A DNA stretch of 63,430 nucleotides, filler included. It is 13 parts of 13 records of this genome, joined end to end, with 100 filler letters (N's around TTAATTAATTAA, not from the genome) between each part and the next. Parts side by side here need not be neighbours in the genome. Positions count along the whole stretch, not along the records: positions 25,763 to 29,498 come from SRR7504441_4226; 12 more parts are not named here. One strand, written 5' to 3'. Made by a program: the position numbers and the translations under genes. Positions 16,862 through 43,931 of the stretch are shown here, piece by piece (within the stretch, counting starts at the first letter, position 1; each line of letters begins with the position of its first letter). The notes under the pieces were generated by a model, which ran no database searches, was not told where the DNA came from, and saw only the letters and a list, made by a program, of their open reading frames with translations.

Positions 16862-18418
16862 TTAGTTCTTGACAGTCCGCTTGTACGAGACGGCGGCGTT
16901 GATGGCGAACGACGTCATGACCACTGCCGCCACCCCCCAGTAGTTTCGGATAAACCCATGGAAGTCCTTGGCGGCCAGCAGCCCCCCTCTCTTCTGGGCT
17001 GGCGTTGGGACGTCGTCCAGCATGATCGTGTTGGCGTACAAGCCTTCTATCGTCTCCCGAGTCCTGATTAGTTGCACGACCGGCTTCTGTGCAGTGGAGG
17101 AACTCCGAATGAGAAGCTCAGGAGCCCTGAGCTTGCCATTGTACTGGAAGCCCATCGAGTGGCTGTGGGCGCCGGTGTCGTGCACCACAAACAGGTCGCC
17201 CACGCCGCAGGTGTTGGGCAGCGGCCGATCTTTGGCGAACCAGTCGTTGTTCTCACAGAGTGTCCCGACAACGTTCGATCTCTCGAGATCTCCCGAATCG
17301 CGCCCGGCGACCGTGATGTGGTGATAGGCCTCGTACATGCCCGGGCGCATCAGGTTGGCCATGCAGGCGTCCAGCCCGTAATACTTGTTCCCGAAGGCGT
17401 GCTTGACCACCTCGCACCGTGCGACCAGCCAGCCGTACGGCCCAGTCACGCACCGGCCGCACTCCATCAGCAGCTTGGGCTCCTGCTCGAGCCCGAGCGC
17501 CGAGATCTCCCGGCTGAACACCTCGCGCACACGCTGGGCCAGCTGGGCGTAGTCCACCTTGGGTTTGGTCGGCTCGTACGGCACACCGATCCCGCCTCCG
17601 ATGTTCACAAATTCGAATTCGATCCCGAGCTCGACCCTGAGCTCGCCCATCTTGCGGAGCAGCAGCGTGACCGTCTCGGTCCAGTAGTCGTCCCCGAGCA
17701 CGCACGACCCGGTCATCATGTGGATCCCAAATCGGGTGGCCCCAGCCTGCTGCGCCTGCCTGTACGCCTCGACGATCTGGTCTGCCGGCACCCCGAACTT
17801 TGCATTTGGGCCGCCGAGCACATTGCTCTTAGTCTCGCTGTTGGTGTTGCCCAGGCCCGGGTTGAATCGGAACGAGATGAGCTCGGGGCACTTGCCGCAC
17901 TTGTCGGCTATAGACTTGACCAGCGTGAGGTCGTCCAGGTTTATGATCACTCCCTGCCTGAACGCCTTCTCAAGGTCGGACGGGCTGGTGTAGTTTGAGG
18001 TGTACATCACCTACCCCCGGGCTCGGCTCGCCGCCCGACCGCCGGCCGACCTGGTCAGGGGCCACTCCGAGCTGGTCGGCGATGTGAAGCTCCGAGGTAG
18101 ACGAGCAGTCCAGCCCGCACCCGGCCTCCAGCACCACCTGCCGGCGCTCAGACAGGCGCGGGCCGAGCCTGGACCTGCAGGATGGCTGGATTGGGCAGCG
18201 CCTTGACCGCGAAGAAGTTCTGGAAGCTTGGAAAGTGCACCCGGAAGGCCGAGAGGAACGCGTCCAGGTTGTCGCTGCCGGTCGGTGAGAGGGCCGGCGG
18301 CCCGGGCGGACCGGATGGCCTGCTCGTCGTAGAGCTGGAACGGGGTGCCGTGCTGTGCGGCCAGCGCCTCCAGCTGGTCCTTACTTAGCGGGCACTCCTT
18401 GCCGTCCTGCTGCCACAT
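16862..18418 (-). CDS. lysA: Diaminopimelate decarboxylase with three 5' introns and a hydrophobic C-terminal tail
   Basis: HGTPFQLYDE, FFAVKALPNP (PLP lysine), LDCSS, KFGV, GIHMMTGS, NIGGGIGVPY, ECGR, LMRPGMY, VVGTLCENND, DTGAHSHSMGFQYNG. Confidence 0.93.
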
Positions 18419-19476: not shown

Positions 19477-19576
19477 NNNNNNNNNNNNNNNNNNNNNNNN
19501 NNNNNNNNNNNNNNNNNNNNTTAATTAATTAANNNNNNNNNNNNNNNNNNNNNNNNNNNNNNNNNNNNNNNNNNNN

Positions 19577-20108
19577 AGCCGCACCTTGTCGGGCCCTGCA
19601 GCACTCTGCTGCGTCCACCACCATCTCCACCACACCGCTGCCCGCCACACAGCACCTGAACCTTACACGCCGCGCCAGGCTCCAGCGCCTTCAGCTGGAA
19701 CCGACCAGCCTTTCGCGGGACCAGTGGTGTTTCAAGTGTCTAGCTCACGGTGCAGCCGTATCTGGCCGGGTGCACTACAATCCACAGCGCTCCCCCCTCG
19801 CGCACCACCTCCACCTCGAGTTCGCCACCTTGCTCGCCCCTCCGCAGCCCCAGCCTGCACCGGCCCGGGCCCACTGCACGGTACACCCACAGCTCCTCTC
19901 CCGGCCCCGGCCCCCGGCAGTCCGTTGGCTTGGGGGCCACCCCCTGCAGCGCCAGCACCTCCGGCTGCGCCCCGGCGGCCTCCCATTCCCCGTCGGCAGA
20001 CCGCGCCAGTGGCCCCACCACCAGCGCAGCGCCCCGGGACTCCCGCGCCAGCCCAGCCAGCGGCACCGCCCGCGAGGCGGCCGCCCGCCACTCGCTGGCT
20101 CGGAGCAT
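19577..20108 (-). CDS. Hypothetical protein, 5' part only
   Basis: GC-rich ORF 19740-20108 followed by probable short introns up to the contig edge; no recognisable motif. Confidence 0.35.
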
Positions 20109-20230
20109 CGCCCCCCGGAGCAGCCCGCTCGCCGCCTCGGCCGCCGTCGTCGCCTCTGCTGACTTCCGGCTCCATGACGACCATAAAACGTCCGTTGGCC
20201 CCGGCAGCGGTACATGCTGCGGTGCTCGTC

Positions 20231-22675
20231 ATGATGGAGCCTCATCAGCCCGATTTCGTGGTGGTCGGCGGCGGGGTGTCCGGCTGCGTGCTGGCCCGTC
20301 GGCTGGCGGACGCCGGGCTCTCTGTGCTGCTGGTCGAGGCCGGCAGCTCGCTGGCCCAACAACCCGCCTCTCGCGACCCGCTCCGGGCAGCCGAGCTGTG
20401 GGCAAGCCCCGGCTGGATGGCGGGCCAGCGCGCCGGCGGGTCCACGCACAGCGCCGACTGGGGCCTGGTCTCCGAGCCGGAGCCCGGGCTGGGCGGCCGT
20501 CGGGTGCCGCTCAACGCCGGGCGCTGCCTCGGAGGGGGGTCCGGGATTAACAACGGCTTGTGGGGGGTCGCATGGGCCGGGCAGCAGCCCTGGGCGAGCT
20601 GGGCCGACCGGTTCGGGCTCGCGGAATGGGCCCCGGAGGCCATGGCCCCGCACCTGGAGCGGGCGCGCGCCGCGGTGGCCCCTCAGCCTCCTGCGGATCA
20701 CCCCCGGCTGGCGGCCTTCGACCAGGCAGTCGCCCCGATCACACAGCCCCAAACCGCCTCGGGGAGCCCGTCGCGCGTGCTCTGGTGCGTGGATGCCCAG
20801 TCCGGGCAGCGGGTCACCGCCGCCGACGCGTATGCAGTCACCGACACCGGTTTGCTGACCGTGTGGCAGGAGAGCCTAGCAGTCAAGCTGGTGCTCTCCG
20901 GTCACGGTGATGCTTGTCGATGTGACGGGGTGATTGTCGAGCGGTCAGGCCAGCCAGTGCTGGTCCGGCCCCGGTGCGAGGTGGTGCTCTCGTGCGGCGC
21001 GTTGCACACTCCGGCGCTGCTGCTAAGGAGCGGGATGGGGCCCGGCCAGCCAGTCAGCTCGCCTTGGGTCGGCCAAGGCCTCATAACCCAGCCGTCGCTC
21101 CCGCTGAAGCTGGCTCCCGGGGTCTCCGACCGGCCGAGCTGGCAAGGCCCGGCGCTCCAACCGGTGGCGCCTGTGAAGGCGCCTGTCGGGTCAGGGGTCG
21201 AGGCCGCGTGCTTCCAGTGGACTGGCGCTGGCGTGCTGTACGCTCTCTGCCTGGCCATGCCCAGAGCCCGAGGCAGCGTTTGGGTGGACAGCGCCGACCC
21301 GCACGACCCGCCAAAGTTCAGATTCAACCTGTGCACGGAGCAGGACGCCCAGACGCTCAGCGAGGCCGTGATCCGGTTCCGCGAATGCCTGGACGGCCCA
21401 GGCGGGGCAAATCTCAAGGCGGCTATGGGCGGACTTGAGCCCGAGTGGTGGCAAGATGGCGAGTCGGTGGAGCAGTGGGTGCGGGCGCGGGTGGGAAGCA
21501 CCCGGCACCCGATGGGCTCCTGCAGGATGGGAAAGAATCGCCAGAGCGCCGTGTGCGACGAGCGGGGCCGAGTGTTTGGGGTGCGTGGGCTGCGGATATG
21601 CGACAACTCGCTGGTGCCGCACCCGCCACCAGACACACACGTGATGCGAGTCGCGTTCGGGCTGGCGGAGCGCATCTCGAGCTTCGTAATTGATGCGCAC
21701 GCCCCATGCGATGCTTGTTATGGAAAAGGAGAGCGCTTCGCCATGGAAGGGTACGACGGCGAAGACGACGGGCCAGAGGACTACAAGATAGTGACGTGTC
21801 TTAAGTGTGGCGGCACGGGAGGAGCTGAATGCGAAAGCTGGACCAAAGCGATGAGCCCGCGGCGAGGAGTAGCTCCACCCTCGATGGCGAGAGTGCCGCC
21901 AAGCCCGGCCGATTCCAGACCCAAAGCGCCGCCTCCGAGCCCTCTCCGGGCCTCGCCAGTCCGGTTTTACTTCACCTTCCGGTCGCCATTCGCCTGGCTC
22001 GCCTTGCGGCGCATCCGGCGCTCAAACGCCTTCAAGGAAGTGGAGGTGGAGCTCAAACCCGTTGCACCGGACCGGATCTTTGGAGGCAACTTCGACAATC
22101 CCACAGACAACGCTTACAAAGCCTCTTACATCTTCGAGGACGCTGGTCGGCAGGCCATGGAGGCTTGCATTGCTGGCGAGCCCTTCCGGAAGATCGAGGA
22201 CCGGATGAAGAAGGTCGCGAGCTCGCGAAGAGGCAAAGATCTCGCGAGCGAGAAGTTCTCGTTGCCGTTGCCGCCGGAGGACTGGCACACGCCGGCTAAG
22301 GCTCTGTTGTACGCGATTGGGCAGGGCAAGGGCTGGGCGTTTGCCGAGGCCATGTGCGAGGCACGATGGCTAGGCGAGCGAGTCAATATCCAGAACCCGG
22401 CCACAATAGCGGCCATCGCCGACGAGGTCGGGCTCGACGGCAAGGCGTGCGTTCAAGCAGCCCAGCACTCGCAAGAACTGGAGGCCGAGACGGATGCGAT
22501 CGTGGCCCAAAGCGAGGTGGACCAGGTCTTTGGGTTCCCGTTTTTCGTGACCGCCGGGCAACGCTTCTGGGGCAATGACAGACTCCCGTGGGTTTTGCGG
22601 GCAGCACAAGGGGGTCGTGGCGGCAGTCTTCCCAATATCGTTGTCGACTCTTCGGTGCCGCCGTCCAAGTTGTAG
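20231..22675 (+). CDS. Fusion of GMC oxidoreductase, a CxxCxGxG zinc finger and a DsbA-like (HCCA isomerase / GST-kappa) domain
   Basis: DFVVVGGGVSGCVLARRL, GRCLGGGSGIN, EVVLSCGALHTPALLLRSG, HPMGSCRMG, GVRGLRICDNS; CDACYGKG...CLKCGGTG; FYFTFRSPFAW...VFGFPFFV...FWGNDRL; one uninterrupted frame. Confidence 0.85.
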   Translation: MMEPHQPDFVVVGGGVSGCVLARRLADAGLSVLLVEAGSSLAQQPASRDPLRAAELWASPGWMAGQRAGGSTHSADWGLVSEPEPGLGGRRVPLNAGRCLGGGSGINNGLWGVAWAGQQPWASWADRFGLAEWAPEAMAPHLERARAAVAPQPPADHPRLAAFDQAVAPITQPQTASGSPSRVLWCVDAQSGQRVTAADAYAVTDTGLLTVWQESLAVKLVLSGHGDACRCDGVIVERSGQPVLVRPRCEVVLSCGALHTPALLLRSGMGPGQPVSSPWVGQGLITQPSLPLKLAPGVSDRPSWQGPALQPVAPVKAPVGSGVEAACFQWTGAGVLYALCLAMPRARGSVWVDSADPHDPPKFRFNLCTEQDAQTLSEAVIRFRECLDGPGGANLKAAMGGLEPEWWQDGESVEQWVRARVGSTRHPMGSCRMGKNRQSAVCDERGRVFGVRGLRICDNSLVPHPPPDTHVMRVAFGLAERISSFVIDAHAPCDACYGKGERFAMEGYDGEDDGPEDYKIVTCLKCGGTGGAECESWTKAMSPRRGVAPPSMARVPPSPADSRPKAPPPSPLRASPVRFYFTFRSPFAWLALRRIRRSNAFKEVEVELKPVAPDRIFGGNFDNPTDNAYKASYIFEDAGRQAMEACIAGEPFRKIEDRMKKVASSRRGKDLASEKFSLPLPPEDWHTPAKALLYAIGQGKGWAFAEAMCEARWLGERVNIQNPATIAAIADEVGLDGKACVQAAQHSQELEAETDAIVAQSEVDQVFGFPFFVTAGQRFWGNDRLPWVLRAAQGGRGGSLPNIVVDSSVPPSKL

Positions 22676-27217: not shown

Positions 27218-27391
27218 CGGTCGAAACAAAGCTCGGGATCTCGTGTACAACCAACAAAGCGTCTATACCATGAATCAAGTGAACAATTGAATCCACGTAA
27301 GGAGTATACATGTAATAATCCGTTTTAATGCGAAAGAACCCTGACCAGTTACATAATTAATAACATCAGTTCAATCAATAGCATCTACGTC

Positions 27392-29498
27392 TCACTGGAC
27401 AGCCACATAAACGTCATCCAGCCAAACCGATCCGGGCGCGGCCACGGCTCCGACCGGTGGCCCGATCCGCAGGTTGAGACTAGCTTGGGCCGGCCAGTTC
27501 CGCTCGGGCAGCGTGACGTTGATCAGCTGCCAGGTCGAATTGAGCACCTGCGTTAAGAGTGATTTCCTTATTAGAAGGTGTGTTAACACCCAGCGTCTCG
27601 CAATGAATCCCGGGGCATCGGCGTACTTTTGATATGTCGACAGACCCAACGGCGATGTCGTGCTCAGAGTAGCATCTCCCCACCCACCAACAGTAACTTC
27701 AACAGACATTCCTGCACAGCTGTGTATTAAACCGAGAAAACACAAATAATGAAGTACCCGCCGGGAAAGACCGCGCCCACAGCTGGACAGCATACTCTGT
27801 CTGATTTGCAACGGCAACTCCGTCCAAGTTGGTGGTGTGGCCGGGGACCCCGAAGACCACAGGCTGAGCCGACGGCAGCCACACTCGACCAGAGTGGCGG
27901 CCGGATCGAGGCAGAATGCTGTCAACGAAGAATAACGCGCGGCCGTCCCGCAGGTCGTGATGCTGCCCGAGGCCCCAGGAGCCGGCGTGCTTGTCCTCCA
28001 CCTTAACACGGCGTCCTAATCAGGCAGTGGGTGTAGCTTAACACCTTGCACACGCCCTTGAACGTACCCGGCCGGAATCGGGCCTCCTCCGCACACGAGA
28101 TGAACCCTGGATTAACAACAGCGTTTGCCTTATTGGGAAGATGCGTTAACTTACCGGGCGTGATCGGCAGCTCCGAGTACTCAAACCCTGGGTCGTTTAC
28201 AAGATTCTCCAGATCGGGCGCCTGCGTAACAGTGATTGCCTTATATGGGAGCCGTGTTAACCGCCCAGCTATCGCAGCCAATCTGATACACGTGTGTCGC
28301 CCCCGGGGTAATGAAATCAGTCAGGCTGTGACTCCCATCTCCTTTGTCAGTCGGCAGCAACGGCACGCTGTAATGCTCGACAAACTTGTGAACCGCTGTA
28401 AGATTATCCCTCGCACAATAATCCCAACCGCACAGCCCTTGGATGTGAGCCTCAAACTGGCCAGGTGCGTCCCCAACGGACGACACCGCCACAAAAACGC
28501 ACAATGATCTCTCTCGATGTTCGTACGAAGCGTCTCGCCAGGCTCGAGCTCGGATGGTGGCGTCGGGCGTGACAGTTACAGTTGGGTGAACAGTGTCGGC
28601 CTTGGAGAGAAGAGCTGGGGCTATTTCGAGGAGTTGTGCGTTGACGGCTGAAATGGCGTCCTCCAGAATCCACCGGGCGAACATGATGTGGTTGTAGACG
28701 TACCTAGTTAACACCGGTGATTGCCTTATTTGGAAAGTGGTGTTACCAGCACTGGTGTGCGATGTTCCCGCTGATCAGGCCCAGCCAAGCCGCCGTCTGA
28801 GCCAAGCGCGGCCGCGGCTGCCGGACCTGTGTCCGTTGGGTTAAAAGCGGTTAGAGGCCGGCGCGCACTGCATCAGGCATGTTGATGAGCGGTACGTTGG
28901 CCATGGGAGGCATTCTCAGGTCGCCGTCCGACCCGCCGCGGCGCCAGCCGTCTTGGGCGTGGAAGCTCAGGTCTGGCCCATAGCTTAACAACCCTTCCTA
29001 ATTAGGCAATCAATTAACACCCGGCCGGTAATTCTCTCGCATCGGCGCGTCCAGCGAGAGACGAGGCTGCCAAAACAGTCAGAAATGCCGTTATAATGCC
29101 GTTAGAACCTCCACGAAAGCGTGAGTCTCCCCACACTCGAGCGCCCCAGTGGTAAAGTGGTAAGGGTCAAGCTGTCAAAAGCAGTTAAATGTCAGTTGGA
29201 TAGCTGTTGGACCCGCTTGAGCAAGTTGTATGTCACGGCCAGCGACTCGAGGAACTCGAACCCCTTAACACACGCCCCAAATCAGGCAATGTGCATATCT
29301 TAACGCATGACCTTGCAGCAGTCGTCACAGATATAATATCCAATCAAGGCCTTTGCCCCCAAGTTGTCAGTCAACAAAGCACAGTTAGACACCGGGTGCT
29401 GCTTCACGTAACTCACGTTTTGCTCCATCCAGCCGACCTCCTCGGCGCACGGGGCCGTGGCGTGGCTGCCCATAGCTTAACACCTTCCTAATCAGGCA
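27392..29498 (-). CDS. Clan GH-A-like TIM-barrel glycoside hydrolase with C-terminal CBM-like domain, 13 introns, 5' truncated
   Basis: Removing 13 GT-AG introns gives one open frame: VKQHPALIGYYICDDCCK...YNLLKRLDPYH...SLDAPMRENYRPDLSFH...QCWYVYN...NLVNDPGFE...WLDDVYVAVQ*. Confidence 0.75.
27548..27589 (+). mobile_element. Introner-like intron copy (element antisense to host gene), 42 nt
   Basis: CTGCG TTAA GAGTGAT TTCCTTATTAGAAGGTGTG TTAA CAC; GT..AG on the minus strand. Confidence 0.7.
28002..28044 (-). mobile_element. Introner-like intron copy (sense), 43 nt
   Basis: GTG TTAA GCTACACCCAC TGCCTGATTAGGACGCCGTG TTAA G; AAG|GTG at both junctions. Confidence 0.75.
28107..28154 (+). mobile_element. 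Introner-like intron copy (antisense), 48 nt
   Basis: CTGGA TTAA CAACAGCGTT TGCCTTATTGGGAAGATGCG TTAA CTTAC. Confidence 0.72.
28222..28261 (+). mobile_element. Introner-like intron copy (antisense), 40 nt (43 nt if a GC donor is used)
   Basis: CTGC GTAA CAGTGAT TGCCTTATATGGGAGCCGTG TTAA C. Confidence 0.72.
28704..28746 (+). mobile_element. Introner-like intron copy (antisense), 43 nt
   Basis: CTAG TTAA CACCGGTGAT TGCCTTATTTGGAAAGTGGTG TTAC; terminal inverted repeat TAACACC/GGTGTTA. Confidence 0.75.
28973..29020 (-). mobile_element. Introner-like intron copy (sense), 48 nt
   Basis: GTG TTAA TTGAT TGCCTAATTAGGAAGGGTTG TTAA GCTATGGGCCAG; removal restores ENYRPDLSF. Confidence 0.75.
29264..29311 (-). 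mobile_element. Introner-like intron copy (sense), 48 nt
   Basis: GTCATGCG TTAA GATATGCACAT TGCCTGATTTGGGGCGTGTG TTAA G. Confidence 0.72.
29466..29498 (-). mobile_element. Introner-like intron copy (sense), truncated by the contig end
   Basis: TGCCTGATTAGGAAGGTG TTAA GCTATGGGCAG; nearly the same 3' end as the 28973 copy. Confidence 0.68.
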
Positions 29499-29598: not shown

Positions 29599-29760
29599 GC
29601 CCGACGCCGCCCGTGGCTGCCTGCACAACCACCCCACGAAGACAACAGGCGCCCGGGAGCAGCGTGAACTCCTCTTACCGGGATAGTAACCCTCCGGTGT
29701 GGGGTCTTTGCCGATCTGTGGTCTATACACATCGGGCCAACCGCCTTGCTCTTTCGCCAT
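29599..29760 (-). CDS. Possible first exon(s) of a gene running off the contig
   Basis: MAKEQGGWPDVYRPQIGKDPTPEGYYP, then a GTAAG...TTGTGCAG intron-like segment. Confidence 0.4.
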
Positions 29761-31594
29761 GGATAAATCCGTGCTGGCCGTGGCCATGGTGCTCACTACA
29801 GCCACCGCCTCGCCCTTGCACTCGCGGTCGTCGGGGTACACCCCACTGCCACCAAGCCCGGAGGCAATCAAGCTGCAGAGTGGCCTCGAGGCAGCCGTGA
29901 CGCAAAGGCAGCGTGTATTCACCATTCCTTCCGGCGTGTATGCCTTCAACAATGCCTCACTCAACGTGGAAGGAGCTGAGGGGCTTACTCTGGATTTCGA
30001 ACCCAAGGTCGAATTGTGGTTCGCCGTCGGCGCTGGCATTCTTGTCCGCAACTCGCACGGCGTCGTCATCCAAGGCCGTGGCCTGGTCGTGGACTATAGC
30101 CCGTTGCCGTACTTCCAGGCCACTGCTGTTTCCGGGGTGGAATCGGCGGGTGACGGTGGTGCTAGCATCGAGGTCAGGATCGATCCTGGCTCGTTGACAC
30201 CTCCCGACTTCTGGCAGTCGTGGGGAAGCAGCCCGACCAATGAGTTCGTTCAAGGCCCAGTCTGGTGGTCTGGATCGGCCAAAGGCGTCGGTGGCGCATC
30301 ATTCCCGCTCAAATCGCAAGGCTTCAGCGGCATCAGCCTCAGCGACTTTAAGGCTTCTGGGATGCCGGGCCAGCGGCTCTTCACCTACACGCCTGTGGCC
30401 GGGTTCCGGCCGCCGATCCCGCAAGCTGGGGACAAGCTGACTGCCATTGTTCGAATCGGGTACACTCTCCTTCTGCTCAACTCTTCTGGATGCATCCTGC
30501 AGGACATCGACATACACACAGCGTCCTTCATGGCAATCACCGAATTCGACGGCGCGGGTGGCAACGTTTACACCAATGTGAACGTTGTGCGGAGAGCTGG
30601 TGGCGGTGCGGGAGGCAACCCTCAGGCCACCTCACCCTCCACTGATGCCACTGTCCTCTGTGGCCCAAACCATGACCGGGTGTGCATGGCAGCTGTTTCG
30701 TCAAATGGTGACGTGTTCCACTCCTCGGGGTGCAAAGTCGGGCCTGTGATCAAACGGTGCGAGTTCTCGTACGCGCTGGACGATTTTGTGAATGTTCACA
30801 CCAGGACTCAGGTTGTTTGCGCTGACCGATCGAGGTCTGCGCAGCCAGCACGGGGACTGGGATCTGAGGCGTCACCCACACGGACACTAGTGATCGCCGA
30901 CCCGAGGCTCAAGTTGGATCGGCATACCATCGACGATCACCCATACGGCACCGTGGAAACCATGCCCAATGTCCGAGAAGGGGACACGCTCTCGTTCCGT
31001 GCAGTTGAGACCCTCGCGCTTGTGTGCACAGCCACTGTGTCCAGCATCATGCGGATCCCGTTCAGTGACAGTCGAGTCGCGGCAGCTCAAGCGTTTGTAG
31101 ACGCGCAAAAGGTGGCTGCCGGCCACAAGTTCAACCCTATCGATGTGTGGTTCACAACTAGAGCGGGGACAAATGAAAGCAGGGTGTGGCAGGTTGGCGT
31201 GGAGGTCGATGTGCATAAATGTAACAGCTCGCTCACGGGGCTCATGGTGAACGCTGAGGCATGGTCCAACAGCGGGGCGGTACTCGATGGGAACTACTTC
31301 CACTCGTCCATTGATGGGATTCGTTGGAAGTCTTCTAACGGGCGCATTACCAACAACAGGTGGGAGCCGGCGGTGTCGCTCACTGGGCTCGAGGTTACAC
31401 CCCTCAGGTCGTACTATGAAGGGCCCTTTGGGATTAGCAACGTGACCATCAGCGGTAACGTCTTTGTTGGCGGGTCGCCAAAGCTGATCACAGAGTGTAC
31501 TGGCATGTCGCACCACACAAAGCCAGGGGTTTGGGTCAGCTGCACAGATATCAAAATTACCAACAACTCTTTCCCTCCGGATCCGGGTTCGTAA
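29759..31594 (+). CDS. Secreted right-handed beta-helix protein, GH110 (alpha-galactosidase)-like, intronless
   Basis: Signal peptide; VDYSPLPYFQAT; SSNGDVFHSSGCKVGPVIKRCEFSYALDDFVNVH; GAVLDGNYF, GRITNN and NVTISGNVF beta-helix repeats. Confidence 0.7.
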   Translation: MDKSVLAVAMVLTTATASPLHSRSSGYTPLPPSPEAIKLQSGLEAAVTQRQRVFTIPSGVYAFNNASLNVEGAEGLTLDFEPKVELWFAVGAGILVRNSHGVVIQGRGLVVDYSPLPYFQATAVSGVESAGDGGASIEVRIDPGSLTPPDFWQSWGSSPTNEFVQGPVWWSGSAKGVGGASFPLKSQGFSGISLSDFKASGMPGQRLFTYTPVAGFRPPIPQAGDKLTAIVRIGYTLLLLNSSGCILQDIDIHTASFMAITEFDGAGGNVYTNVNVVRRAGGGAGGNPQATSPSTDATVLCGPNHDRVCMAAVSSNGDVFHSSGCKVGPVIKRCEFSYALDDFVNVHTRTQVVCADRSRSAQPARGLGSEASPTRTLVIADPRLKLDRHTIDDHPYGTVETMPNVREGDTLSFRAVETLALVCTATVSSIMRIPFSDSRVAAAQAFVDAQKVAAGHKFNPIDVWFTTRAGTNESRVWQVGVEVDVHKCNSSLTGLMVNAEAWSNSGAVLDGNYFHSSIDGIRWKSSNGRITNNRWEPAVSLTGLEVTPLRSYYEGPFGISNVTISGNVFVGGSPKLITECTGMSHHTKPGVWVSCTDIKITNNSFPPDPGS

Positions 31595-43000: not shown

Positions 43001-43931
43001 TCGGAACGCCCTCACCGTCAACATGCCAAACTCGCGAGAGTACAACCTGGCCTTCAGGATAGGTGACCCAGGGCATCCCGCCCTGCTGAGCCGGTCTGCA
43101 GGCCACAAGGCCAACAAACTCATCAAAGAGTTCTGGCCAGCCAGCGTGGCGCTACTTGAGCTACCAAAGCCAATTGTGACTGAGCGACCCAAACCTGCCA
43201 AGGTACCAGTTCCAGACGATGAGCCAGTTGGTCGAGTCTCTGACCTGCAGAATCGGACACACAAGCCCATAGTGTCCACCTGTCTGATGCTGGCGGAGGC
43301 CGAGGTTTGCAGGATCTGTGGCGCAGTGGACTCTGCAAGCTCTCTGCTGTTTTGCGCCGGGTGTGGCGAGGGCTTCCACTACTTTTGCTGCGATGCTCCC
43401 AAGGAGCTGTGCGAGCAGCAGGTGGCTTGGCACTGCATGGGGTGTAAGCGCTGTGCAATCTGCCACGAGCGCAGATTTGATGATGGCCTACTCATATGTG
43501 AGCTCTGCCAAGAAGGCTGCCATCCAGAGTGTCTATCACCAGAGCAGAGAGCGTGCCTCGAGTTAACTAACACATGCAGCCGCTGCCTGCCAGCTGACCA
43601 GAAAGCAATAGTGTGCCGGAGGCTGCACAAGGGTGCAGCCCAGCAGTTGGAGAGCTCCAACAAGCAGCCCAAGCCCAAAAGGCAAAAGAAGGAAAAGCCA
43701 CGCAGCCAGCCAACTTGTTCTCTAGATGCGGAGGAAGTGTTGGGGAACCGGAGCCACAGCAGATCCAACAGAAGGATCACTGTGCCTCCGCGGTTCCAGC
43801 AGCCCGCTGGTGCAAATGGGGACATCAGCCTCGATGAGCAGCCACATTTTGTGAAGGTTAGGCCGCCTGTGGTGCAGGCAGGCCAGCACAGCCAGCTTGG
43901 TGCCTCTTGGCCAGCCCCACAGCAACCAACA
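40093..43931 (+). CDS. Multi-domain chromatin reader (2 CW fingers, bromodomain, PWWP, Tudor-like, PHD fingers, second bromo-like domain), 3' truncated
   Basis: WAQCDKCEKWRR and WVSCDKCSKWRR; PFMEPVDW...IVTNPMDLGTIKKRL; WSKVKGHPSWPA; MVFCDGCELWIHIRC; VIDQPMDLSSI; CRICG...LLFCAGCGEGFHYFC. Confidence 0.85.

Follow-up and report, generated by a model that had tools for sequence, protein, structure and literature searches.

The origin of new spliceosomal introns is a long-standing question, and transposon-like introners are their best documented source. Miniature elements with a TTAA target, such as those of the piggyBac type, are short and AT-rich and carry TTAA at or near both ends. Introners are similar introns multiplied across a genome, with family medians of 30–654 nucleotides (nt) and from 5 to over 2000 copies; in the survey that reported these values, 520 Tara Oceans assemblies were screened, opposite-orientation pairs were considered, and piggyBac serves in the accessible text as an analogy for genic insertion only (PMC9860276). 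The elements of Aureococcus anophagefferens and classes 6, 8 and 10 of Polarella glacialis generate introns whichever way they insert, and their target duplication is 8 nt long (bioRxiv 10.1101/2020.10.14.339549). Both two-way intron creation and very short introners are thus already published in the accessible parts of these sources (bioRxiv 10.1101/2020.10.14.339549; PMC9860276). Here, a stretch of 63,430 bases (the window) was analysed, in which 8 of the 12 introns of one gene, the host gene, share the layout TTAA..TGCCTNATTNGG..GTGTTAA with some mismatches, four in each orientation. The most likely explanation, held with middling confidence, was that a short, near-palindromic and AT-rich sequence had been inserted at the DNA level and is spliced out as an intron whichever way it lies. 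The locus works like a two-way introner, but the dispersal over unrelated genes that defines introners was not seen in the sequence searched so far. A mobile intron-generating family had been proposed by an earlier inspection of the same DNA (the sequence-only reading). One family, in both orientations, intron-like and absent from the homologous locus, could be confirmed, while no copy was found outside the gene in all that was searched, and a mobile, spreading introner family is a candidate reading only.

The window consisted of 13 contigs of 3.1–7.4 kb each, joined by N44-TTAATTAATTAA-N44 linkers, so that genes on either side of a linker are not genomic neighbours. It is a sample of a binned assembly and not a single piece of chromosome. 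The intron-rich host gene is carried by the focal contig (25763-29498), the only one of the 13 found to have a family copy at its end when the contig ends were compared. The gene and its introns, numbered c1 to c8 (family) and o1 to o4 (non-family), were distributed as follows.

27392..29465, minus strand: host gene, 3' part, with 12 exons and the stop codon at 27392-27394; 5' part lost at the contig end; family unassigned
29466..29498, minus strand: family intron c8, sense (TGCCT.. on the mRNA strand), truncated by the contig end, AG kept
29264..29311, minus strand: family intron c7, sense, 48 nt, phase 0; AG of TTAAG is the 3' splice site; follows TGCAAG
29172..29212, minus strand: non-family intron o1, 41 nt; weakly resembles o2, in the same orientation
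29067..29108, minus strand: non-family intron o2, 42 nt
28973..29020, minus strand: family intron c6, sense, 48 nt, phase 1; core is the perfect palindrome CCTAATTAGG
28827..28868, minus strand: non-family intron o3, 42 nt, GC content 0.62
28704..28746, minus strand: family intron c5, antisense (TGCCT.. on the plus strand), 43 nt, phase 2; inverted-repeat ends TAACACC/GGTGTTA
28222..28261, minus strand: family intron c4, antisense, 40 nt, phase 0; the 5' splice site is GTTAAC itself
28107..28154, minus strand: family intron c3, antisense, 48 nt, phase 1; in-frame read-through if retained
28002..28044, minus strand: family intron c2, sense, 43 nt, phase 0; GTGTTAAG at start and end; junction repeat AAG/GTG (the slash marks the splice junction)
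27712..27757, minus strand: non-family intron o4, 46 nt; present in DNA contig X3 from a public run
27548..27589, minus strand: family intron c1, antisense, 42 nt, phase 0; most diverged core (TTCCTTATTAGA)

Compared with the described systems, the present family, whose eight introns are alike along their full length, resembles the Aureococcus and Polarella introners as these appear in the accessible text: its members are probable short non-coding DNA insertions, predicted to be removed by the spliceosome in both orientations, with splice sites partly carried and partly recruited, a GC content below that of the host and a presumably unchanged mRNA. Its length also falls within the published introner medians of 30–654 nt (PMC9860276, accessible text). 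Those introners are described as having copies by the hundreds or thousands, spread over unrelated genes, and a target duplication of constant length (8 nt, GHN6), whereas the 8 present copies all lie in one gene, are about 70% identical and show no duplication of constant length; their ends are TTAA-containing near-palindromes. Fungal same-gene duplications (SGD), as far as the source text covers them, are alike in being similar introns within one gene with the lengths and folding energies of ordinary introns; they number at most 16 per species, and half of them are segmental and include exon sequence (PMC3609843). The host gene holds 8 copies in both orientations without exon duplication. 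As far as was searched, the similar introns are confined to this one gene, as in SGD. With piggyBac-type elements the family shares a short AT-rich sequence with TTAA at or near both ends, but the TTAA spacing is wrong for a duplication restored by splicing, the bases GYG form a direct repeat, no inverted repeats lie inside the TTAAs (except in c5), and no transposase was seen in the 29 long frames tested. A description of a TTAA or piggyBac-like introner of the present type was not found in the accessible literature, and the supplementary tables of the surveys (PMC9860276 and PMC12130899), which list families per Tara assembly, may already contain this family.

The reality of the family could be established by several searches. 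The core TGCCTNATTNGG, allowing at most one mismatch, was matched 12 times in the window against 4.07 expected, a count reached by 0 of 100 shuffles. Eight of these 12 matches fall in 28015-29498 and represent seven copies, the 28973 copy being matched on both strands; the 27548 copy, with two mismatches, is not among them, and the other four matches (10303, 13570, 25140 and 46115) are without the TTAA layout. The full layout pattern gave 3 matches in the window against 0.00 expected, its strict form fitting three of the seven complete copies. An nhmmer profile built from the eight copies recovered all eight (E 2e-8 to 2e-3) and no further copy in the window, the next best match having an E value of 0.52. 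An independent repeat search found direct families (D1, which takes in c3, c4 and c5; D2, which takes in c2 and c7; and D4) and inverted pairs (I1, c4/c6; I2, c2/c4; I5, c5/c6) among the same segments, with 68–76% identity over 34–42 nt in the direct families and 75–89% over 18–28 nt in the inverted pairs. In family D4, c8 and c6 share a common 3' tail, ..GTTAAGCTATGGGC(C)AG, of which 15 nt are identical. The 5' end of c1, GTGTTAACAC, is a 10-nt palindrome.

The orientation of the copies was evaluated with leave-one-out profiles, which matched each of the eight copies on the expected strand only and none of the four other introns. Pair scores within an orientation were 34–46 (antisense) and 26–52 (sense), against a shuffle background with a 99th percentile of 22 and a maximum of 26, and all 16 cross-orientation pairs scored higher as reverse complements (22–36) than in the same direction (10–26). 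By these comparisons the two orientations are real and no illusion from the palindromic core. Copying at the RNA level keeps orientation, and the two orientations therefore point to DNA-level insertion. Much of the sequence-only reading was borne out here: the eight segments lie where it had placed them, with the layout it had described including mismatches, and its division into four sense (28002, 28973, 29264, 29466) and four antisense copies (27548, 28107, 28222, 28704) agrees with both the profiles and the pair scores. Also present were the near-palindromic core and the inverted ends TAACACC/GGTGTTA that it had pointed out, the latter in the 28704 copy, as were GT..AG ends on the gene strand in all seven complete copies, the eighth, cut by the contig end, keeping its AG.

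Removal of 12 introns, all of 40–48 nt and of GT-AG type, gives a single open frame of 529 codons ending at the stop codon. The single open frame had been predicted together with 13 introns; the frame stood, and since 12 introns suffice the family makes up 8 of 12. The phases of the family introns were 0, 0, 0, 0, 1, 1, 2 and 2, that of c8 being inferred. A search of a collection of 5.8 billion proteins yielded as relatives only four longer proteins (P0001–P0004), with 42–49% identity to the longest exon of the host gene, and one short protein; when an exon with read-through tails was used as the query for close relatives, only one protein of 50% identity was found. No Pfam family could be assigned to the host exons or to the homologues P0002 and P0003, and the N-terminal part of the gene was sought on the other contigs of the window and not found. 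Two of the relatives of the host protein came from assemblies labelled COSAG01 and COSAG02, which are Picozoa co-assembled single-cell genomes according to the accessible text of two papers. In tblastn searches of P0001–P0004 against the focal contig the matches were collinear segments, exon by exon, and the spliced protein, which has no internal repeats and is collinear with its homologues, aligned without gaps at the junctions of c7, o1, o2, c6, o3, c5, c3 and c2. Though indirect, this collinearity is good evidence for the removal of these segments. The 16 residues that a retained c3 would add are missing from the homologues.

The homologues also indicate that the introns are absent from related genes. 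A protein scan of metagenome_contigs yielded one locus, L016, with 64% GC and a 99% match to P0001, whose gene has about 50–57% protein identity to the host gene. The sequence-only reading would have been contradicted by the same intron positions in distant orthologues; on L016, none of the six overlapping positions (c7, o1, o2, c6, o3 and c5) was occupied. L016 has two longer introns elsewhere, one of 74 nt and one of about 141 nt; 11 bases separate the c7 site from the nearer of the two, and the family profile found no match on this locus. P0001 and P0002 are continuous across further intron positions and, judging from how such metagenome proteins are called, are probably single open frames. 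As far as these alignments reach, the intron positions are not conserved in distant homologues, and this absence from the homologous locus fits DNA-level insertion.

The base composition of the copies was also distinct. The spliced coding sequence (CDS) of the host gene had a GC content of 0.61 and a GC content at third codon positions (GC3) of 0.71, inside the GC3 range of 0.56–0.85 of 16 frames on the other contigs. The family introns, with GC 0.38–0.51 in a genome that is GC-rich, were below both the host CDS and the other verified introns. A diaminopimelate decarboxylase gene on another contig (16252-19476, minus strand), whose best named relatives are oomycete and labyrinthulomycete proteins of 61–63% identity, contains three introns that could be verified by collinearity with P0006. 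All three lie in the 5' part of the gene, with GC 0.78–0.85, and none was matched by the family profile.

18275-18311, minus strand: decarboxylase intron, 37 nt
18138-18174, minus strand: decarboxylase intron, 37 nt
18011-18050, minus strand: decarboxylase intron, 40 nt

The tiny-intron size class is thus common to the bin, and the family copies are compositional outliers in it; such an AT-rich outlier composition fits an origin by insertion. In a heuristic scan, the other 12 contigs held about 20 unverified candidate tiny introns in addition to the three verified ones. A candidate 50-nt GT-AG intron at 43562-43611 (plus strand) starts with GTTAACTAAC, like the 5' ends of the family; it has no core motif and no profile match.

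The conserved part of the element, read on the TGCCT strand, consists of G(C/T)G-TTAA(C/G), 4–11 nt, TGCCTNATTNGG, 4–7 nt and GTG-TTAA(C/G). The intron borders are offset from these conserved ends, with 3–8 extra intron bases before and 0–11 after. Copies c2 and c7 take their 3' splice site from the AG of the terminal TTAAG, and c4 and c5 their 5' splice site from the GT of GTTAAC or GTAAC. In the mechanism that we propose, about 35–40 nt of AT-rich DNA would have entered the CDS of a previously intron-poor gene on at least eight occasions and in both directions, and each insertion would be spliced out as a tiny U2-type GT-AG intron, leaving the protein unchanged. The near-palindromic parts may let the element work in both directions. 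For either strand, a 5' splice site (GTGTTAA.. or GTTAAC) could come from its TTAA-containing ends. On the sense strand, the 3' AG would come from the end TTAAG and a branch-like CTGAT or CTAAT from the core; on the antisense strand, the opposite end would contribute a branch-like TTAAC with GCAG, CCAG or TAG after it. A few adjacent bases may be recruited where GT or AG is missing from the element. Functionally this would be an introner-like, non-autonomous insertion. We infer the origin of the copies by insertion, the branch-point bases and the mover, which may be a transposase or other machinery.

Several observations weigh against a spreading mobile element, beginning with the ends of the copies. 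TTAA occurs near both ends in five of the seven complete copies, and the sequence-only reading had taken it for the piggyBac target site, an assignment that the geometry contradicts. Because splicing restores a protein collinear with intron-less homologues, the DNA added per site equals the intron length; a target duplication must then recur at intron-length spacing, which the TTAAs do not. They lie 35 nt apart in c2, an intron of 43 nt, and 30 nt apart in c1, an intron of 42 nt, and leaving one TTAA behind would keep 8 extra bases in c2, so a piggyBac-type target duplication was rejected. The spacing mismatch and the 8 leftover bases imply that the TTAAs are part of the repeated sequence itself. 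The extra bases outside the conserved ends sum to 3–14, and no fixed-length duplication fits. The bases ahead of both TTAAs (GYG) form a direct and not an inverted repeat, and the inverted ends amount to the palindromic TTAA plus 1–3 bases, being longer in c5 alone; terminal inverted repeats inward of the TTAA were present in one of the seven complete copies (c5, CACC/GGTG). Repeats at the junctions, previously put at 4–6 nt, were present but short, measuring 6, 4, 4, 4, 2, 2 and 1 nt in register in the seven complete copies, largely the G/GT consensus. They gave a weak, modestly locus-specific signal in favour of insertion, the observed match sum being reached by 115 of 5040 permutations of the 5' and 3' junctions, and the other four introns had no junction-repeat excess. 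Target duplications and terminal inverted repeats are no required part of the introner definition in print. The exon flanks of the copies are unrelated, which rules out segmental duplication, with the exception of the hexamer TGCAAG (Cys-Lys), which precedes both c2 (28045-28050) and c7 (29312-29317) and may be a target preference or chance.

The distribution of the copies adds to this side of the balance. No family copy could be found by the profile in the other 58,494 bases of the window (12 contigs), and 8 copies in 2.1 kb against 0 in 58 kb is far from an even spread. The clustering reflects either a hot-spot gene (e.g., by local hopping), or local copying, or a contig foreign to its bin mates. 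The strict layout had 0 matches in metagenome_contigs, a collection that seems to be without this organism; in genome_contigs, from which the organism also seems absent, the layout gave 12 single, chance-like matches in prokaryotes, and in viral_contigs 15 chance-like matches on AT-rich phage contigs, 8 of them in one phage gene. As the protein scan reached only the distant L016, the public collections seem to be without the organism and absence there is weak evidence. Among 29 long frames tested against Pfam (62 kb available), no transposase domain was detected, in line with what had been said of the window from its sequence. The copies are about 68–76% identical over 34–42 nt, which indicates no recent burst. 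The four sense and four antisense copies also form two sequence subgroups that coincide with orientation, where random two-way insertion from one pool predicts otherwise.

Sequencing runs were used to follow the gene outside the assembly. Eight public runs contained 5–7% of the sampled words, and four of the eight were examined, giving four contigs of 161–303 nt. Contig X5, from a poly(A) metatranscriptome, matched 27364-27524 with 100% identity, so the host gene is probably expressed; it covers the last exon and the 3' end only. Contig X1, from DNA, contains c5 with 100% identity. Contig X8, from an RNA library, covers 27781-28042 and includes 41 of the 43 bases of c2 unspliced, and may be DNA or pre-mRNA. 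The four contigs from the four runs contained no splice joint, X5 (in the last exon and 3' end) and X8 (running into c2) being neither proof nor disproof of splicing; the missing joint and the unspliced c2 of X8 count with the points above.

The main rival to the insertion of an element is local copying without a transposon, in which a resident intron was copied into breaks of the same gene during repair and the spliceable copies survived; templated or filler-DNA insertion, which is able to copy nearby sequence direct or inverted, would be the route. It is possible, at a probability well below an even one. All eight copies lie in one 2.1-kb gene, together with the weakly related pair o1 and o2, and none lies in 58.5 kb. 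These two introns are similar over their whole length in the same orientation, with a score of 26 that equals the maximum of 2000 shuffles, and could make up another small family of introns within this gene, as their alignment suggests. The variable distance from the conserved part to the splice site and the lack of a fixed target duplication also suit local copying, the short locus-specific junction repeats could be microhomologies, and in fungi the duplication of introns within one gene is documented as a minor class, which comprises 82 of 1610 multi-copy introns in the accessible text of PMC3609843. Eight events in one gene, however, demand repeated breaks there, and because the AT-rich family is unlike the verified introns of the bin, its first copy must still have come from elsewhere. 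A length of 40–48 nt is also great for a repair-templated insertion. The published same-gene duplications are half segmental and their orientation is not discussed in the accessible text (PMC3609843), whereas the flanking exons here are unduplicated. More tentatively still, a transposase-free multiplication of tiny introns at the DNA level within their own gene, in either orientation, could be envisaged; in repair synthesis at breaks, an adjacent intron would be copied in as filler, and the copy would be spliceable either way thanks to its near-palindromic core and ends (GTGTTAAC). If true, it would be a route of intron gain apart from introner transposition and reverse splicing, and would explain a single gene with 12 introns in 2.1 kb within an intron-poor genome. 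RNA-level intron transposition within the gene's own transcript (reverse splicing, reverse transcription and recombination), starting from two founders of opposite orientation, appears improbable. It would account for subgroups that coincide with orientation, for the clustering in one transcript, for sites (G/G or AAG/G) that resemble proto-splice sites and for the lack of a clear target duplication, but the opposite orientation is impossible by this route and a founder would still need DNA-level inversion or insertion. The modest locus-specific junction repeats would be unexpected, and no intron folds better than shuffles in RNA structure (z -1.63 to +1.51), unlike the fungal elements for which this route is proposed in the accessible text of PMC3609843.

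The remaining readings received little weight. That these are ordinary old introns, alike only through common splice and branch signals, is very unlikely: TTAAC does agree with the YTNAY branch consensus, TAAC motifs also occur in the non-family introns o1–o3 and all introns of the gene are of nearly equal length, but a 12-nt core is found in both orientations, without a splice role on one, the profile matches none of the four neighbouring introns and none of the three verified introns of the other contig, and the introns are absent from homologues. Ordinary introns are contradicted by this absence and by the orientation tests. An assembly or binning artefact, either a chimeric contig or a contig from another organism than its 12 bin mates, in which case absence elsewhere would be meaningless, is given an equally slight chance. 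The window does consist of 13 short linker-joined contigs, the focal contig terminates inside a family copy, and the taxonomic signals are unlike between contigs, the best homologues of the focal gene being Picozoa single-cell proteins and those of the decarboxylase stramenopile proteins. Against an artefact, independent public runs carry parts of the gene, including c5, c2 and o4, at 98.5–100% identity (one run may be the source sample), the composition of the CDS agrees with the bin, and the tiny intron size class occurs on another contig as well. Least credible of all is the cutting of TTAA-bounded elements from the DNA by precise excision of the piggyBac type, as for ciliate internal eliminated sequences. 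The TTAAs near both ends in five of the seven complete copies would suit it, yet one TTAA left behind means the 8 extra bases in c2 and a frame shift where GT-AG removal is exactly collinear, the TTAA spacing is unequal to the intron length, and six of the seven copies are without inverted repeats inside the TTAAs. This model was ruled out by the geometry.

With DNA-level insertion as the preferred explanation, the locus represents a very small case, in which about 40 bases seemingly carry enough symmetric signal for splicing in both directions, and its distribution is unusual in that all eight copies sit in a single gene and none was seen close by. Should the family turn out to extend through the genome, it would rank with the shortest introners and belong to a lineage unnamed in the main text of the surveys, possibly Picozoa or a heterotrophic stramenopile; Picozoa go unmentioned in the main text of PMC9860276 and of PMC12130899, as far as these sources were accessible. 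If confined to the host gene, it would point to local intron copying, which is poorly documented.

Other features of the window were recorded besides the intron family. Eukaryotic genes could be recognised on the contigs by WW, PHD-bromodomain, SIR2, HMMR_C, MFS, GMC oxidoreductase, aldo-keto reductase and diaminopimelate decarboxylase matches, and no Rfam families were detected in the window. The remainder of the focal contig (25763-27300) contains short open frames only (70–111 codons, on both strands) and no family copy; it may be another intron-rich gene or non-coding. On the next contig, a 634-codon frame (29690-31594, plus strand) has a signal-like start and a weak right-handed beta-helix match (E 5e-4, under the Pfam cut-off) and, like the focal gene, no clear family. 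A 1048-codon frame at 19529-22675 (plus strand) encodes the N and C domains of a GMC oxidoreductase fused to a C-terminal DSBA-like thioredoxin domain, which is an unusual fusion.

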